From an uncultured Bdellovibrionales bacterium (GTDB lineage Bacteria > Patescibacteriota > Minisyncoccia > Moranbacterales > UBA2206): DNA of 62,465 bases. The number at the start of each line of letters is the position of its first letter. The first letter of the stretch is position 1. Shown here piece by piece: positions 871 through 40,175 of the stretch. The position numbers were made by a program, and so were the translations under genes. Below the pieces are notes generated by a model, which searched no databases, had not been told where the DNA came from, and worked only from the letters and a program-made list of their open reading frames with translations. The DNA lies in contig CAZWRY010000004.1 of assembly GCA_964636505.1 (NCBI GenBank), positions 4,985-67,449 on the forward strand. Reading direction: 5' to 3'.

Positions 871-970
871 AATCTGAATGCATTAATAATAAGAAAAAGT
901 CAACTTTAATATAGCTATCCTAGTCCCAAAATATAAAAAAATCAAGTAAACATTCCATATTTCAACAAAA

Positions 971-1059
971 CAAAAAACACCTCATACGAAGTGCTTTCAG
1001 TCTACAGTAAGACGATAAAATTAATCGCCGCTTATTGCGATTAATCCTTTGTGTTTATT
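971..1059 (-). repeat. Direct repeat copy 1 (hairpins plus terminator-like end)
   Basis: Shares identical 21-nt (995-1015 = 2367-2387) and 26-nt (1023-1048 = 2395-2420) blocks with copy 2. Confidence 0.9.
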
Positions 1060-1119
1060 CCAAACCAAGACAAATTCTTAGAAAACAAAAGATTGAACAA
1101 CCTAATCAATTTCAAAATA

Positions 1120-2307
1120 TCACCAAGAAACATCCAATCCGTCTGCTATTTTCACAAGCGACTGTTTGGGCTTATCCAAATCCATTATGAATATTTCCCC
1201 TTTTTCTGAATATGAAGGCTGATTTTTATTGGATAAACTGAATAAGACCCAATTCGGATTTTCCGGATAAAACCATGCCTGATATTCGACAGAATATTGA
1301 TTTGAAATATCTTGTGGTAATTTTTCCTGAATCTTGCTCTCTATCTCTTTTAACTCATCTGTTTTTGTTAATTTTCCTGAAGTTGTATCATAAATCCAGT
1401 AAGATTGGACACCGGATGATGACCATCTATTATAATATAAAACAGAAATTTTTTCACTACTTAAAATTCTTCTTTTAGGAATTATTGAAGCGCTCAAATC
1501 TCCATCCAACCCAACGAGTGTTTTTTCCTTAAGAGATTCGATTGAAACTTTTTTTATTATAGACTTATCATAACCGTCAATTTCCAAATACCCATCATAA
1601 ACAAACTCTTCTTCACTAATCCATTCAACATATCTCCCTCCTTCAAATGAACCTTTTTTTCTTTTTTTATCCAAATCATATATGCTGATAGCCCCGACCA
1701 CATATGTCCCCGAATTAACAATCAGGTATTTTCCGTCAGGAGACCATGAGACAATCCTTCTCATCACAGGATCATCGGTATATATAGTGGACATACTTTT
1801 GTTATCTGAATTGAATATGCAAATTCTGTAATAATCTGAGTTATTAGCGTCATCGCTTTCATCTAGATCATCGCTTATTCCCTGCCCAGCGCAATCAGTT
1901 GTAGGATTATTGTGCAAGAAAGCAATTTTCTTTCCATCTGGAGAAATCAGAGGTTCCTCACCTTCACCTATTTTTTCGGCAACCTCCGAAACGCTTCTCA
2001 TGAAATAAATCTCCCCGTCCAATGCAAAAGCTATGCTCTTTTTTCTGATATATTCTGGCAAACTACTAACATCGAAATTGGCATTGGTATATTTCAAGAT
2101 TGTATCATCTGAAGTTTCGATTATACCTGCAGGTTCATTAGTCGTCTCAACCTGGCTAATTTCATTTACTTCCAGTTGCGAAATTGCCGAATTTTTTGAT
2201 TCTTCTTTATATCCAACCCTATCTCCAGTGTATATTAAAAATCCGAAAGATAGAGACAGGATAATTATAATTCCAATCGCCAACTCAATTGATACTTTCT
2301 TATTCAT
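1120..2307 (-). CDS. Membrane-anchored TolB/PD40-like beta-propeller protein
   Basis: ORF 1120..2346, likely start MNKKVSIE at 2307. N-terminal TM helix and SPDGK repeats (PLISPDGKKIAF, VSWSPDGKYLIV). TGnTATAAT at 2335-2343 upstream. Confidence 0.7.
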   Translation of the reverse strand: MNKKVSIELAIGIIIILSLSFGFLIYTGDRVGYKEESKNSAISQLEVNEISQVETTNEPAGIIETSDDTILKYTNANFDVSSLPEYIRKKSIAFALDGEIYFMRSVSEVAEKIGEGEEPLISPDGKKIAFLHNNPTTDCAGQGISDDLDESDDANNSDYYRICIFNSDNKSMSTIYTDDPVMRRIVSWSPDGKYLIVNSGTYVVGAISIYDLDKKRKKGSFEGGRYVEWISEEEFVYDGYLEIDGYDKSIIKKVSIESLKEKTLVGLDGDLSASIIPKRRILSSEKISVLYYNRWSSSGVQSYWIYDTTSGKLTKTDELKEIESKIQEKLPQDISNQYSVEYQAWFYPENPNWVLFSLSNKNQPSYSEKGEIFIMDLDKPKQSLVKIADGLDVSW

Positions 2308-2343
2308 ATATTTCAAAAATATTTTTATAATTAAATTATAACA

Positions 2344-2432
2344 CAAAAAAACACCTTTTCAGGTGTTTTCAGTCTACAGTAAGACGACAATAAAAATCGC
2401 CGCTTATTGCGATTAATCCTAATATGTTTATT
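2344..2432 (-). repeat. Direct repeat copy 2, ending in an intrinsic terminator (aaaacacc-tgaaaa-ggtgtttt-ttt)
   Basis: Matches 971-1059; hairpin plus T-run on the minus strand. Confidence 0.9.
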
Positions 2433-2565
2433 TGTTCTGAGCCATTGCTTACCCAATTGGTAAACAAAGTTTTACTTTGAGCCTAAGCTCAAGGCAAACG
2501 ACCGTATAGATTAGTCTGCTGTCCGAAGACAACAGAGTTCACCGTAACTCCCTAGAAAGGAGGTG
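2344..2565 (-). ncRNA. Structured non-coding segment starting with an anti-Shine-Dalgarno (CACCTCCTTTCTAGGGAG); resembles a 16S rRNA 3' end/trailer without the 16S gene
   Basis: Minus strand has CACCTCCTTTCT (2565-2554), then hairpins ctgttgtc-TTCG-gacagcag, ttgagc-ttag-gctcaa, ttacc-aatt-gggtaa, aatcgc-N8-gcgatt and a terminator. The identity is inferred. Confidence 0.45.
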
Positions 2566-2692
2566 TTTGAGAACGAATAGACTCGCGTAAAATCGGGCTT
2601 TTTTCTTCAGCTATTCCCTAGAAATAATTGTTAAATTTCACAGTTGCATTCTAGGATAGTATTGGGAAGTTAGCAAATTAGTTATCCCCTAT

Positions 2693-4639
2693 TTATTTCT
2701 GAAGTTTATCTATCGTCAGCGGACCGACAAACCCGGTTTGAGGCAATCCATTTTGAGCCTGAAATTTCCTTACCGCTTCAGTTGTAATCGGACCATAAAT
2801 TCCGGTAATATATTGAGAATCAAGCAATTCCAGCTGATTGAGTTTCTTTTGAATATTTTTGACTCCTTCAGTTGTCCCAGAATCAAAATCCGTGCCGTTC
2901 ACCAAGCCTCCGTTTTCGCTTGAACCGAAAGATAAGTTATCTAAATTTATTCGTTTATCAGCTTCTTCCGTATCAGCCCCTGGGTTAGTGACATATATTT
3001 TTCTCTTGTGATCGGTTTGGATTTCCATGAGTTTATCTAAGCAAAATTTAGCCACTATTTTCTGGCTGGATTTTTTGCTAACAGAGGAAGCTTTTTTGTT
3101 GCCGATTTTGACTTCTGCATCTTTGTCAAAATGTTTTCCTTTTATCGTAAGCTTGATCTTTTCACTGCAACTTCCATTATTGTCGATATATTTATATGCT
3201 TTCCAAGAAGTAATTTTTGCTTTTCGATCTTGTTCTTCATTTGAATTTGACTGATCTGCTTCATCTCCCTCATCCTCACCGGATTCTCCAGTCGTTCTGA
3301 AATTCCAAGTTGTTTTGTCGGAAATCCCGGCATAAAAATCAAAAGACTCGGTGTAAAAAGTGTCCGCATCGATTTGGATGTAAAAGTCGGTTCCTTCTTG
3401 AAAATTTTCGCCCGGATTTATTGTGACCAAATTTCCATCAATTATTACTGTACCTCCGATTGCTTGTTTCTCCCAGGTTTCACCTTCATCAGATGAAAAA
3501 TAGACATTTTCGCTAGAAAATATGGACAAAATAGATCCGTCTTGACTCAGTGCGCAGCCGCTCCACCATCCTGTATACAAATCACTACTCCAGTTTTCGC
3601 CTCCATCAATCGAAATAAAACTGCCTACGGAACCGTTAGCCAAAAGATGAGACCCGTTGTTATCCGTTGCGACATACCAGCCTTCAGACATTAAAGGAGT
3701 TGGGTCATTAAAATCCCAGTTTGATCCGCCATCGGTAGACACATAAACTCCGCCTCCGGTATTACTGACTGTTCCCAATATTATAGTTGATCCATCATCA
3801 TCCAGATCAGCCGATTGCCAAGAAAAACTATCGGAACTGGGAGGGCTGGGATTCAATTTGGTCCAAGAAGATCCTTTGTTATATGAAACATATACGCCTA
3901 CGCTATTATTGCTAGACCCTGCTAAAAGTACTGATCCGTCTCCATCAGAAGAAACCACATCCCAACTTTTGTCGGATACTCCGTTAGGAATAGATTCTGT
4001 CCAAGTCGCTCCGCTATCTTCGGAAATATAGACTTTGTCCTGCCAAGCTCCAACTATCAATACGGAGCCATCGTTATCGGAAGCAACAACTTGCCAATTT
4101 TTAGTAACTCCCTCTCCTGCCGGATATCTGGTTGTCCAGTGCTCACCTCCGTCGGTTGAAGTATAGACATAATCACCGTTAGCTACAGCCACCATTTTTA
4201 ATCCGTCATCGCTTATTGCCGCGCCATTCCAACTCGCTCCCTCAACAGGAGCCACTTCGGACCAGGAAGAACCTCCGTCGGAAGATACAAAAATCTTGCC
4301 TGAATTATCAGCCACAATCCAATTGGTGCCGTCGAGATCCGAAGCTACGCTTCGATAATCGGAACTTGAATTGACAGGAATAGTTTCTGCCGTTGAATCA
4401 TCGGATGCTTTTTTAATTTCAATATTTCCGGAATTCGTGGAAACTCCTTCCGAAAAAGTCATTGTTAAGTTTGAATTAACAGGAACATCAACCGCTCCGT
4501 CTTGGGGAGAATATTCAGTAACAGTCAACGCCGCGCAGACATTAGCTGCGAAAAAGAAATTGATCCAAAGGAAAGTAAGAGCAATTGCTGTAAAAATCGA
4601 ATATGCCAGAATACTTTTTCGGATATTTTTTGTTTTCAT
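2693..4639 (-). CDS. Secreted surface protein: Ig-like (Big_5-type) domain, BNR/Asp-box propeller, IPT-like domain and C-terminal peptidoglycan-binding domain
   Basis: Signal/TM segment, repeated SxDGGxxW Asp-boxes, and C-terminal GIYGPITTEAVRKFQAQNGLPQTGFVGPLT (PG_binding_1-like). Confidence 0.75.
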   Translation of the reverse strand: MKTKNIRKSILAYSIFTAIALTFLWINFFFAANVCAALTVTEYSPQDGAVDVPVNSNLTMTFSEGVSTNSGNIEIKKASDDSTAETIPVNSSSDYRSVASDLDGTNWIVADNSGKIFVSSDGGSSWSEVAPVEGASWNGAAISDDGLKMVAVANGDYVYTSTDGGEHWTTRYPAGEGVTKNWQVVASDNDGSVLIVGAWQDKVYISEDSGATWTESIPNGVSDKSWDVVSSDGDGSVLLAGSSNNSVGVYVSYNKGSSWTKLNPSPPSSDSFSWQSADLDDDGSTIILGTVSNTGGGVYVSTDGGSNWDFNDPTPLMSEGWYVATDNNGSHLLANGSVGSFISIDGGENWSSDLYTGWWSGCALSQDGSILSIFSSENVYFSSDEGETWEKQAIGGTVIIDGNLVTINPGENFQEGTDFYIQIDADTFYTESFDFYAGISDKTTWNFRTTGESGEDEGDEADQSNSNEEQDRKAKITSWKAYKYIDNNGSCSEKIKLTIKGKHFDKDAEVKIGNKKASSVSKKSSQKIVAKFCLDKLMEIQTDHKRKIYVTNPGADTEEADKRINLDNLSFGSSENGGLVNGTDFDSGTTEGVKNIQKKLNQLELLDSQYITGIYGPITTEAVRKFQAQNGLPQTGFVGPLTIDKLQK

Positions 4640-4731: not shown

Positions 4732-4970
4732 TTATTTGAGCCAGAAAAAGAACTTGTCTTTCACCATTTTCCTAAATTCTTCTACCAAAATTACTGAAAA
4801 AGCTATGCCGACAATAATCGCCCAATCCTTTCCATCCAAAGGAACTGTCCGCAACACCTTCTGAAAAAACGGATTATATACCGCCAATAATTGAAGTCCG
4901 ATTACGATACCAGTGGCTCCGACCAGAAATTTATTGGAAAACGGATTGGAAGTAAAAATTGATTTCACCA
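4732..4970 (-). pseudogene. C-terminal remnant of a cation-transporting P-type ATPase
   Basis: NPFSNKFLVGATGIVIGLQLLAVYNPFFQKVLRTVPLDGKDW matches the last TM helices of P-type ATPases. Everything upstream is replaced by the transposase region. Confidence 0.7.
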
Positions 4971-4974
4971 ATAT

Positions 4975-4995
4975 AGTAGAGGACAGTCCTCGACT
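4975..4995. repeat. REP-like palindrome with GTAG (aGTAGAGGACAGTCCTCGACt)
   Basis: Stem gagga/tcctc with a GTAG tetranucleotide, immediately after the transposase stop. Confidence 0.55.
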
Positions 4996-5002
4996 GAAAA
5001 AG

Positions 5003-5636
5003 TTATTCAATAAAAATGCCTTTAATTTTCTTCATATTGTCAATTTGACCTAGAGCGTACTTGAAATACTCTTTTTTATTTTTAAATTGTCCAAGAATAG
5101 AATCCCTCTCCAATATTAAACTCGGTTTTTTATTCGTATATTCCTTGAAGCTCGACCATGCGTATTTTTCTGTTTTTGAGAACCCATGAATCTCACAATT
5201 GCAATTAACATATGCTGAAGTATATAACAGTTGCTCATTAGTACTTATGTGCGTCGCCTTAAATCTTCCTTGAAAAATAACCCCTGAATGCTTATATTTT
5301 CTATTAAAATACATTGCATACCCGGTGCATATTTTTTTCATAAATGTGGCTACGCCGCCTAGTTTCCTTTCTCGGAGTATCGGAGTATTAGATGAAAATG
5401 ATTTGAATTCAAGCAATATGCTACGACGACAACGAGCCTCTCTTTTTCTTTAGGATAAGCATCTATTCCTGCCTCTCGCAAATCATTTATAACCCAACTT
5501 GGCTTTTCCGTATTGAAATCAAGTAATCAATAAAGCGCAGAAAGTCCTTTTCTTGAGTAAAAATATTTTTCTTTTCTACTCCGCGATTACAAATATGATA
5601 ATATTCTCCAATCGCAAATTCTATTTTCCTCCTCAT
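5003..5636 (-). pseudogene. REP-associated/IS200-like HUH (Y1) transposase with two frameshifts
   Basis: Three frames join into MRRKIEFAIGEYYHICNRGVEKKNIF.. / DFNTEKP..AYCLNSNHFHLILR (HUH) / ERKLGGVATFMKKICTGYAMYFNRKYKHSGVIFQGRFKA..YVNCN..WSSF. Shifts lie near 5520 and at an 8-bp tandem duplication (cggagtat x2, 5373-5388). Confidence 0.85.
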
Positions 5637-5696
5637 AAACAAATACCATCATTTCTTTTGTTTTTAGTCTAAAAAATAAAAAAAGTAAGCTCAAGG

Positions 5697-5768
5697 CTCC
5701 GCGACCAGGACTCGAACCTGGAACCAATTGATTAACAGTCAACTGCTCTACCATTGAGCTATCGCGGA
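5697..5768 (-). tRNA. tRNA-Asn(GTT)
   Basis: tccgcgatagctcaatggtagagcagttgactGTTaatcaattggttccaggttcgagtcctggtcgcggag folds as a cloverleaf; CCA not encoded. Confidence 0.95.
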
Positions 5769-38765: not shown

Positions 38766-40175
38766 ATGTTTGATTTTTTTAAAAAAAGAAGCGGGATACT
38801 GGGAATGAATGCCAGAAATCTTGACTATATTCGTCCTTACAACCTGAAAAGTGCCAAAAGACTCGCTGATAACAAACTTTTAAGTAAAAAAAAATTGGCT
38901 AAAAGCGGCATTTCCGTTTCGCCGTTGCTTTTTAAAATACGCAGCCGCGAAGAATTGGAAAGTTTTGACTGGAGCAAGCTTCCGGAAAGTTTCGCACTAA
39001 AACCTAACCGCGGATTTGGAGGAGAAGGCATCATTGTTGTCTATGGAAAAAAGAAAAACTCCGAAAATACCTGGATAAAAGCCGACAGATCAAAGGTTAC
39101 CGTTGAAGATTTAAAAAACCATATTCAAAATATCTTGGATGGAGCTTTTTCTTTGGCCAATACTCTGGACATCGCCTTTTTTGAAGAAAGAGTTAGGCTA
39201 AGCAAGTCTTTTAAGCCCTACACCTTTAAGGGCATTCCGGATATTCGGGTCATTGTTTTTAATAAAGTGCCTGTCATGGCCATGCTCCGACTTCCAACTA
39301 AAGAGTCTGGCGGCAAAGCCAATTTACATCAGGGCGCCATTGGAGTTGGCATTGATATGGCTTCCGGCATTACTACTTCGGCCGTACAGGGAAAAAACAA
39401 ATTAATTGAAAAAATGCCAGATTCAAGGATGTCCACCAGTGGGTTTAAGATACCTTTTTGGAAGGATATTTTGCTCTTAGCTGTCCGCGCTCAAGAGATA
39501 TCCAAGCTGGGTTATTTGGGCGTTGACATTGCTATTGACAAAGAGAGAGGTCCGCTTATTTTGGAATTAAATGCCCGCCCAGGACTTTCCATTCAAATAG
39601 CCAACTTGGCCGGCCTAAAAGAGCGCCTGAAAAGAGTTAGCGGCCTTAAAATCAAATCTCTTGAACGTGGCGTTCGCGTCGGCATGGATCTTTTTGGAGG
39701 AGAAATTGAAGAGGAGGTTGAAGATATCTCCGGACGCAAAGTAATCGGACCGATAGAAAAAATCAAGCTAATCGGAAAAGAAGGAAAAGAAATTGAAGTT
39801 GAAGCTAAAATTGATACAGGAGCTTTTTCTTCCTCTATTGACATAAATCTTGCTAAAGAGCTAGGCTTTCAAGAAATTATAGAAAAATTTTCTGAACTAG
39901 ACTTGTCAGAATATAAATTATTACCAGAAAATGAAGCTGTTATTAAAAAAGATGTGTTGGAAAAATATAAAAACAAGATTCCAGACCTAGAAGATGTGGC
40001 CGTTGTTTTTTCATCACACGGAGCATCAATTCGCCCAATAGTTAAGATTAACTTTATCATGGATAATCTGGAAATATTTTCCAGAATGAACATAATAGAC
40101 AGAAGTAATCTGAAATGTCCCGTTATTATCGGCAGAAAAAACCTGGAAAAATTCTTAATTGATGTAAACAAATAA
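38766..40175 (+). CDS. Alpha-L-glutamate ligase-like ATP-grasp fused to a retropepsin-like protease
   Basis: GMNARN..N, KPNRGFGGEG, PDIRVIV, ANLHQGA, LELNARPGLSIQIAN; C-terminal KIDTGAFSSSID..IIGRKNL. Confidence 0.85.
   Translation: MFDFFKKRSGILGMNARNLDYIRPYNLKSAKRLADNKLLSKKKLAKSGISVSPLLFKIRSREELESFDWSKLPESFALKPNRGFGGEGIIVVYGKKKNSENTWIKADRSKVTVEDLKNHIQNILDGAFSLANTLDIAFFEERVRLSKSFKPYTFKGIPDIRVIVFNKVPVMAMLRLPTKESGGKANLHQGAIGVGIDMASGITTSAVQGKNKLIEKMPDSRMSTSGFKIPFWKDILLLAVRAQEISKLGYLGVDIAIDKERGPLILELNARPGLSIQIANLAGLKERLKRVSGLKIKSLERGVRVGMDLFGGEIEEEVEDISGRKVIGPIEKIKLIGKEGKEIEVEAKIDTGAFSSSIDINLAKELGFQEIIEKFSELDLSEYKLLPENEAVIKKDVLEKYKNKIPDLEDVAVVFSSHGASIRPIVKINFIMDNLEIFSRMNIIDRSNLKCPVIIGRKNLEKFLIDVNK

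Follow-up and report, generated by a model that had tools for sequence, protein, structure and literature searches.

Direct repeats around a beta-propeller gene in a patescibacterial genome correspond to the 3′ module of a 16S rRNA trailer-like RNA

Organisation of the locus

The window analysed here is a 62,465-nt stretch of contig C4 in a metagenome-derived assembly of 783 kb (30 contigs, 37% G+C). At its left end every gene lies on the minus strand and, in the direction of transcription, a gene for a protein with BNR/Asp-box propeller, Ig-like and peptidoglycan-binding domains is followed by a non-coding structured stretch, a PD40/TolB-like beta-propeller gene, a second non-coding stretch and a Shedu nuclease gene (Table 1). 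The Shedu product has a DUF4263 nuclease domain (Pfam SduA_C, E = 3e-10), and its gene continues left past the window across a 10-N scaffold gap. The PD40 gene is cargo lying between two repeats and is an orphan accessory gene. Its protein is absent from the 60 relatives examined, and its best relatives in the databases are just 26-28% identical; none of these homologues is near a trailer of the kind described below, one having a serine recombinase as its neighbour and another lying among core genes. In G+C content the cargo is not distinctive.

Table 1. Features at the left end of the window, listed in the direction of transcription
Feature	Position	Strand	Basis
BNR/Asp-box propeller, Ig-like, peptidoglycan-binding protein gene, upstream of leader A	2693-4639	-	domain search
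Leader A: rrn-like promoter, boxA-like motif, ends in ..GUUCUCAAA at the core	2566-2694	-	
Leader A promoter, TTGCTA-17-TAGAAT	2648-2676	-	
Leader A boxA-like motif, AAAUUUAACAAU	2627-2638	-	
Non-coding structured stretch	2340-2692	-	
Core: CACCUCCUUUCU (last 12 nt of 16S) followed by AGGGAG (first 6 nt of trailer)	2548-2565	-	
5′/middle trailer: AGGGAGUUACGGUGA, hairpin P1 (UUCG loop), AUCUAUACGGUCG, hairpins P2 and P3	2433-2547	-	
Repeat copy B, 3′ module of full trailer: box hairpin, linker, terminator	2340-2432	-	
Copy B predicted terminator	stem 2347-2370 + T-run	-	
Promoter-like site over the terminator: CTGAAA, 16-nt spacer, TATAAT with TG extension (UUUUUUGUGUUAUAAU)	2335-2362	-	
PD40/TolB-like beta-propeller gene, 395 aa, N-terminal hydrophobic anchor	1120-2307	-	Pfam PD40
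Second non-coding stretch	964-1119	-	
Repeat copy A, 3′ module only of 16S-trailer-like RNA	964-1059	-	alignment, folding
Copy A box hairpin, perfect 9 bp: AUUAAUCGC..GCGAUUAAU	within 964-1059	-	
Copy A linker, CGUCUUACUGUAGACUGAAAGC	within 964-1059	-	
Copy A predicted intrinsic terminator	stem 973-998 + T-run	-	
Shedu (SduA) nuclease gene, N-terminal 290 codons	1-870	-	PADLOC PDLC00394, E = 2e-84

Two diverged copies of a hairpin-terminator module

The two repeats are direct, about 95 nt long each and on the same strand as the genes. A first-pass annotation of the window had described the propeller gene as lying between two copies of a hairpin-plus-terminator unit that share identical blocks of 21 and 26 nt, with Shedu behind the second copy, and each of these observations holds. 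The 26-nt block occupies 1023-1048 in copy A and 2395-2420 in copy B, the 21-nt block 995-1015 and 2367-2387; both have two matches in the window against none in 100 shuffles. Over their whole length the copies agree at 84 of 97 aligned positions (87%), the similarity of copy A to copy B beginning at AAUAAACA. A fuzzy search of the whole 783-kb assembly, allowing up to four mismatches, found the module twice and no third time, and alignment of the integrase-side border gave scores no higher than those of shuffles, so that the additional copies suspected to the left of the window are not there. A dispersed repeat of the REP or MITE type would be expected in many copies; just two are present in the 783 kb.

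Both copies fold as a simple hairpin of 6-9 bp followed by a G+C stem and T-run terminator (z = -3.8 and -4.2). Their terminator stems differ by compensatory changes, CACCUG/AGGUG versus CACUUC/GAGGUG. The upstream copy, B, closes a longer structured stretch at its 3′ end (2340-2694, fold z = -4.2) and the downstream copy, A, consists of the 3′ part alone, as the annotation had already recognised.

The structured RNA is related to the 16S rRNA trailer

When searched as DNA against 60 relatives, the structured segment split into parts with different relatives. From CACCTCCTTTCT onward it shares homology with the final 12 nt of 16S rRNA and with the sequence behind true 16S genes of other genera. 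Homologous trailers stand directly 3′ of true 16S genes in L006, L007 and L009-L014 (the 16S gene being confirmed by Rfam RF00177 in L006, L007, L009, L011, L012 and L014), and they share a common order: CACCUCCUUUCU at the end of 16S, AGGGAG..GGUGA at the start of the trailer, a variable hairpin, AUCUAnAYGGUCG, a second variable hairpin, the box GGAYUAAYCRCAA and a terminator. The trailer behind a real 16S gene in the metagenome contigs L034 and L036 matches C4:7379-7549 (window 2395-2565) at 95% identity over about 170 nt, a span that takes in the core, the 5′/middle trailer and the start of the box. The 26-nt block of the box recurs unchanged in G051. The structured segment is a homologue, and within this genome a paralogue, of the 16S rRNA 3′ trailer, and not a tRNA or tmRNA. 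It opens with the last 12 nt of 16S and continues through conserved hairpins and the 3′ strand of the pre-16S processing stem to a terminator.

The assignment of the processing stem comes from the leaders. In G034 and G032 the trailer sequence GGACTAATCACAAAA pairs with TTTTGTGATTAGTCC of the 16S leader, the box being its exact complement, and the 16S leader of the present genome, at the end of contig C8, has GCGATTAGTCC, with which the window box GGATTAATCGCAA pairs except for one G-U. Because the box is complementary to the 16S leaders in all three cases, we take it as the 3′ strand of the pre-16S processing stem. To judge from these alignments and pairings, the repeat corresponds to the 3′ module of a 16S trailer, made up of the processing-stem strand (here predicted to form a local hairpin), the linker and the terminator.

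No SSU rRNA is found in the window, where 12 nt are all of 16S that precedes the trailer; contig C19 has the genome's real 16S 3′ end, at its start. Integration at the 3′ ends of tRNA and tmRNA genes is textbook knowledge, and the first-pass annotation had likened the geometry of the repeats to islands of that kind. The comparison is sound in so far as the repeat represents the 3′ portion of a structured RNA, but this RNA is a paralogue of the 16S trailer and has no 16S gene upstream of it.

Other assignments were tried for the segment. At neither the gathering nor a permissive threshold did an Rfam family match 2340-2700, the search returning only terminator-driven noise (E > 2), and an ARAGORN scan found no tRNA or tmRNA near the repeats; the nearest tRNA, a tRNA-Asn at 5695-5768, lies about 700 nt past the edge of the strain-specific region described below. 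When RNAalifold was applied to a MAFFT alignment of the trailers, the pairs recovered were all invariant, owing to the poor alignment of the variable hairpins; hairpin covariation was seen just by eye.

The same comparison bears on the descent of the two copies. Copy A is 93% identical to the trailer of the true 16S gene in L034 and copy B 91% (compared after removal of a MITE-like insert from the L034/L036 3′ module), against 87% between A and B, differences that amount to fewer than ten positions. That each copy is slightly closer to a foreign trailer than to its neighbour, together with the compensatory changes in the terminators, argues against a recent duplication in place, and the copies appear to be of separate descent.

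Leader A and promoter-like sites

Upstream of the core, the trailer of the window is joined to a leader, here called leader A, in which about 65 nt follow the boxA-like motif and end in GUUCUCAAA. Leader A recurs at 78-90% identity in G014, G020 and G062, which belong to three other genera, and in G033 just its last 22 nt and the 18-nt core match, at 100% over 40 nt in total. In all, junctions of the leader A type occur in seven genomes of three families, including G244, G237 and G124 in other families. In G014 and G020 leader A runs into CACCTCC and a private terminator, not a trailer, and in G014 a single gene, for a metallophosphoesterase, has a partial copy of leader A on one side and a full copy on the other.

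True 16S leaders of relatives carry a boxA-like AAUUUAACAA; the boxA of E. coli is UGCUCUUUAACAA. We considered whether leader A could be a remnant of an adjacent 16S leader, and this was ruled out, as the boxA-like motif is all that it has in common with true leaders. Homology to the class I island ends was also tried; what the two have in common is no more than the short motif TTTCTAGGGA and the final ~10 nt, with marginal scores. Leader A may represent the right end of an island; the bases at its end are similar to the class I motif, and in G020 it lies behind a Fic gene, an arrangement shared with the island end on contig C19 (see below). Alternatively, leader A could be a small-RNA gene in its own right, used as a secondary target.

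A promoter-like site overlaps the predicted terminator of copy B: after the T-run comes TGTTATAAT, an extended -10 element located 28 nt before the start codon of the PD40 gene, and the motif TTTTTTGTGTTAWAAT is also found after trailers of other genomes. Each module probably ends transcription from upstream and restarts it for the next cargo. From the motifs in leader A, read-through driven by its promoter and boxA may likewise reach the cargo.

Trailer-bounded arrays in related genomes

At the real 16S 3′ end of this genome, on contig C19, the end of 16S, the core and a full trailer are followed by an 8.6-kb island with a frameshifted integrase (paralogous to that on C4), a Fic gene and an ORF, and then by ..CCTCCCACGAAT joined to CACCTCCTTTCTAGGGAG and a second full trailer. 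A 20-nt core is thus present at both ends of the island, as direct repeats of an RNA 3′ end. A pattern scan found the 18-nt core in 201 of 301 genomes of the order (the reversed pattern, as a control, had no matches), and in about 47 of these 201 there are two to four copies. Where copies share a contig (15 genomes), they are in direct orientation in 14 cases and 1.5-34 kb apart. The extra copies bracket variable islands, several with Xer-like integrases, and at the loci sampled the distal cores do not belong to second 16S genes. What precedes a distal core is a conserved island-end motif, TCYCCCRCRAAW in 13 loci from at least five families and otherwise the leader A type GTTCYCAAA. In L033 and G051 an integrase gene ends about 120-200 nt before the island-end motif, directly upstream of the distal core.

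Several contigs carry these elements in series. In L034 the order is 16S, core and trailer, two genes, a second core, genes with an integrase remnant, and a third core with its trailer. L035 has three trailers, one with an eroded core and the last one partial, starting right after a stop codon; its two-gene cargo reappears between two trailers in G039:C44, and eroded cores are seen in L035b and G039:C44. Within genera, the genomes G000/G001/G002 and G167/G237 share only trailers and junctions and their cargo is entirely different, the content behind the homologous RNA being hypervariable. For Shedu itself, L037 has the 3′ part of a trailer, small ORFs, a Shedu gene 66% identical to that of the window and an integrase of the same family, and in L033 Shedu is followed by an integrase, an island end, a core and a trailer. 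Pieced together from these two contigs, the layout of the Shedu unit elsewhere is trailer, (small ORFs), Shedu, integrase, island end, core.

Genomic setting of the window array

The last 55 nt of contig C3 are the first 55 nt of C4, and the two contigs are therefore contiguous. Going left from the window one meets the rest of Shedu, then genes for a Y-family polymerase, an S24 LexA/UmuD-like protein, SRAP and a tyrosine recombinase, and lastly ORF208. The recombinase (C4:965-1858; Pfam Phage_integrase, E = 3e-37) lies about 5 kb left of copy A and supplies the nearby integrase that the first-pass annotation had proposed to look for. It is Xer-like by NCBIfam, under all cutoffs, and an 85%-identical homologue is encoded 1.8 kb behind the true 16S gene of G051, in another family. 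The PD40 unit contains no integrase of its own.

Synteny with the same-genus genome G002 breaks off at C3:70239 and resumes at C4:~9954 (window ~4970). Between these points G002 has 1.7 kb of unrelated sequence in place of an 11.8-kb strain-specific region to which both the array and the BNR/peptidoglycan-binding gene belong. The region as a whole is thus absent from G002, but the breakpoints are not at the repeats, and a clean empty allele for the PD40 gene was not found among the relatives examined. Neither outer border of the 11.8-kb region has a copy of the core or trailer, nor does the flank of the C4 integrase. None of the 60 relatives or the database relatives carries such an array with or without PD40, and there is therefore no filled/empty pair for this gene.

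Origin of the repeats

We consider it narrowly probable that each repeat heads a unit acquired on its own, the two units standing in an orphan array that is bounded by trailers and has become detached from 16S. Copy A would be the 5′-truncated trailer at the head of a Shedu-integrase unit, and the repeats would not be a target-site duplication. Under this reading, islands with Xer-like tyrosine recombinases would enter at the junction of the 16S 3′ end and trailer, at the core ..CACCTCCTTTCTAGGGAG, each importing its own copy of the trailer, and serial insertions would therefore build arrays of the form trailer-cargo-trailer-cargo. Along the minus strand, the window array would begin with leader A (rrn-like promoter and boxA-like motif) joined to the core; unit 1 would be the full trailer B and the PD40 gene, and unit 2 trailer A, Shedu, the S24-peptidase/Y-family-polymerase (umuDC-like) pair, SRAP, the integrase and ORF208. 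In each trailer 3′ module a predicted terminator would be overlapped by an extended -10 promoter. Copy A stands where the head trailer of a Shedu unit is expected. It would have lost the core and the 5′ two-thirds of its trailer by deletion or by an illegitimate join; a deletion would also have removed the island end of unit 1 and the next core, and a one-sided homologous plus illegitimate join offers an alternative route to the truncation. The repeat itself is probably not the recombination site or att core. The recurrent crossover core would instead lie about 150 nt upstream of the repeat, at the 16S end/trailer start CACCTCCTTTCTAGGGAG, with ATCACCTCCTTTCTAGGGAG as the putative att core sequence, and it is the geometry of the cores that suggests integrase action there. 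The serial accretion of cassettes that the first-pass annotation had proposed agrees with the recurrence of RNA-bounded arrays in relatives and metagenomes, but copy A is better described as the 5′-eroded trailer of the next unit than as the trace of a single-gene insertion. The locus would then change from a mobile single-gene cassette to the border of two units in an eroded array.

A different route to the same arrangement is a cassette swap by homologous or homology-facilitated illegitimate recombination, with no integrase acting for the PD40 unit. A relative's 16S-downstream array (core, trailer, PD40) would have recombined with a resident leader-core-trailer-Shedu locus, core and trailer serving as the homology anchor and the far side being joined illegitimately just upstream of the resident 3′ module. 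The conservation of trailer blocks across families, seen in G051 and L034/L036, provides portable homology for such an event; the lack of a recombinase in the PD40 unit, a 5′ boundary of copy A without a recognisable site and the apparently separate descent of the copies also fit. A swap leaves unaccounted for, however, the conserved island-end motifs and the integrases beside distal cores elsewhere, and on the present data its outcome would look the same as that of integration followed by deletion. We regard it as unlikely.

Less likely again is that PD40 is a mobile single-gene cassette, inserted at or near the box hairpin by a recombinase that recognises structure, as with the attC sites of integrons, a ~95-nt site being duplicated or carried along. 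One gene between two imperfect-palindrome hairpin modules, with a tyrosine recombinase 5 kb away, is what such a cassette would look like, and the metallophosphoesterase gene of G014 offers a parallel. Yet the integrase scores 92.7 bits with the integron-integrase model TIGR02249 (cutoff 265) and 53 with NF011946 (cutoff 435). The partial trailer of L035, the only other one found, has another 5′ boundary (35 nt before the box, compared with 13 nt here), which argues against a fixed recombination site inside the module. The copies are also 13% divergent with compensatory terminators, each closer to a foreign trailer, and the sequence duplicated in some 47 genomes is the core, not the repeat module.

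We give very little credence to the possibility that the module is a reused terminator/promoter element, duplicated or kept twice with no meaning for mobility, and that its position around the gene is incidental. Both copies are good predicted terminators with -10-like sequences, but the box hairpin and linker are conserved in their bases though unneeded for termination, the same modules border variable cargo in several unrelated genomes, and the entire region is strain-specific; the variability of arrays in other genomes speaks against vertical, syntenic inheritance. A misjoin of the contig at the repeats is barely credible: the assembly is a metagenomic one in 30 contigs with a scaffold gap at the left edge of the window, but the exact identity of the copies extends over just 26 and 21 nt, below usual assembly k-mers, the flanks are unique and independent assemblies hold similar arrays.

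The observations across the order can be drawn together in a tentative model, which we regard as possible rather than probable. Xer-like islands would use the last ~20 nt of the single 16S gene and the start of its trailer as attB and carry a replacement trailer with terminator and promoter. Repeated entry would build integron-like arrays of defence and accessory genes, and some of these, like that of the window, would have been freed from 16S under an rrn-type promoter with boxA, possibly reading through the trailer terminators. If this is real, defence and accessory genes of ultra-small bacteria with a single rRNA operon would have a predictable hotspot at the 16S 3′ end, which would help to account for the variable, hard-to-assemble sequence behind 16S in their metagenome assemblies. 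Candidate attB, attP and integrase parts would also become available for genetic work on organisms that now have almost no tools, and the matter would arise of how pre-16S processing copes with swapped trailers.

Comparison with known systems

Like integrons, the arrays consist of short cargo units, often single genes, parted by imperfect-palindrome modules near a tyrosine recombinase, and a promoter at the head could drive the array. They differ in that the integrase is Xer-like and far under the integron-integrase cutoff, the modules are rRNA trailer homologues with terminators, and the boundaries of partial modules are not fixed. The locus also resembles Shedu defence islands, with SduA in a mobile accessory region together with an S24-peptidase/Y-family-polymerase (umuDC-like) pair and SRAP; here, however, Shedu is cargo and not the cause of the repeats.

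In the rrn operons of E. coli, pre-16S rRNA has a leader/trailer processing stem and is subject to boxA antitermination. The complementarity of the trailer box to the 16S leader and the boxA-like AAUUUAACAA in the leader match this design, whereas the trailer described here ends in its own terminator and the window copy has just 12 nt of 16S between leader and trailer. In Patescibacteria the 16S and 23S genes are unlinked (10.1101/705046, where the sequence behind 16S is not discussed), which explains a trailer with a terminator of its own.

The mechanism class, a tyrosine-recombinase island at an RNA gene 3′ end with serial accretion, is known. A full-text literature search found no report of islands that target the 16S 3′ end or trailer, and this landing site has apparently not been described before. 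The closest analogue is provided by integrative genomic islands at the 3′ ends of tRNA and tmRNA genes, including the ssrA islands of Dehalococcoides (PMC3146451, PMC2764846). Shared with these are the tyrosine recombinase, the replacement copy of the RNA 3′ end, the direct repeats of that end as bounds, as on contig C19, and serial accretion behind one RNA gene of variable cargo that includes defence genes. Dehalococcoides reportedly carries its islands in tandem at a single ssrA gene. The system described here differs in its target, the 16S rRNA 3′ end/trailer, and in that the carried copy is a non-coding trailer of about 200 nt and not a part of the mature RNA. The array of the window, moreover, is not headed by an RNA gene, and its repeat is situated outside the putative crossover core.

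An island behind the genome's own 16S rRNA

Behind the real 16S 3′ end of the window's own genome, outside the window, lies an island of 8.6 kb. The 16S gene itself is missing from the assembly at this locus. A 16S leader outside the window, ~400 nt from the end of contig C8, contains the complement of the trailer box (the 3′ strand of the pre-16S processing stem), TTTTTTGCGATTAGTCC, and we therefore order the segments as C8 end, unassembled 16S and C19 start. From there come the core (the last 12 nt of 16S rRNA and the first 6 nt of trailer), trailer and cargo, then the frameshifted integrase, Fic and ORF356, and finally ..CCTCCCACGAAT, the core again and another full trailer.

Possible fused islands, and a single gene between RNA-element copies, in relatives

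In the relative G051, four tyrosine-recombinase genes lie within 23.8 kb between the true 16S core and a distal core (contig C18; loci L046/L047), as would be expected if several islands had fused here and lost their internal cores to decay. G014 offers another example of a lone gene bracketed by copies of the RNA element: a metallophosphoesterase gene has a full leader A (the rrn-like promoter and boxA-like leader before the core) on one side and, on the other, part of leader A followed by a terminator of its own, with an eroded TGTCCCACGAAG motif further upstream.

Left edge of the window and right edge of the strain-specific region

At the window's left edge, a scaffold gap of 10 N interrupts the Shedu gene just outside position 1. 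At the right edge of the strain-specific region, synteny with the same-genus genome G002 breaks, and C-terminal fragments of a cation-ATPase are split across two ORFs where G002 has a single 212-aa ORF.

Pairing, repeats and inserts in and around the trailers

The pairings CACC..GGUG and UCCUU..AGGGA (alifold) are invariant in the window and in all aligned trailers, and for this reason show no covariation. As modeled, they would sequester the anti-Shine-Dalgarno in the precursor or orphan transcript. A 10-nt direct repeat, TTTCTAGGGA, occurs at the window's core and again in leader A. G014 shows conservation of the leader copy, and G020 and G062 do so to a lesser degree. The core's right half also recurs inverted (AACTCCCTAGAA), 30-60 nt past trailer terminators or ahead of island ends, and is a possible recombinase-binding site. 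Finally, several trailers carry a palindromic, MITE-like insert of ~58 nt (..GTTAAATCCTGC..GCAGGAATTTGCTTTGCAAATTATTTAACAGGGT..) between box hairpin and linker.

Coordinates of features in the window, its genome and loci of relatives
Feature	Sequence	Position	Strand or note
8.6-kb island	C19; C16	1-8680; end	
Frameshifted integrase	C19	5306-6215	
16S leader	C8	about 39930-39962	
Metallophosphoesterase locus	L002 (G014)	1501-2916	minus
Scaffold gap	C4	4975-4984	
Split cation-ATPase	window	4732-5416	
Synteny breakpoint	window	near 4970	
Invariant pairings	window	2540-2565	
TTTCTAGGGA, at core	window	2549-2558	minus
TTTCTAGGGA, in leader A	window	2615-2624	minus
Inverted AACTCCCTAGAA	L004	about 1795-1806	
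Inverted AACTCCCTAGAA	L035	about 600-612	
Inverted AACTCCCTAGAA	L044/L045		downstream of distal trailers
Inverted AACTCCCTAGAA	L005	about 1720	
Palindromic insert	L034	about 210-265	reverse-complement
Palindromic insert	L035	about 2040-2100; about 5075-5130
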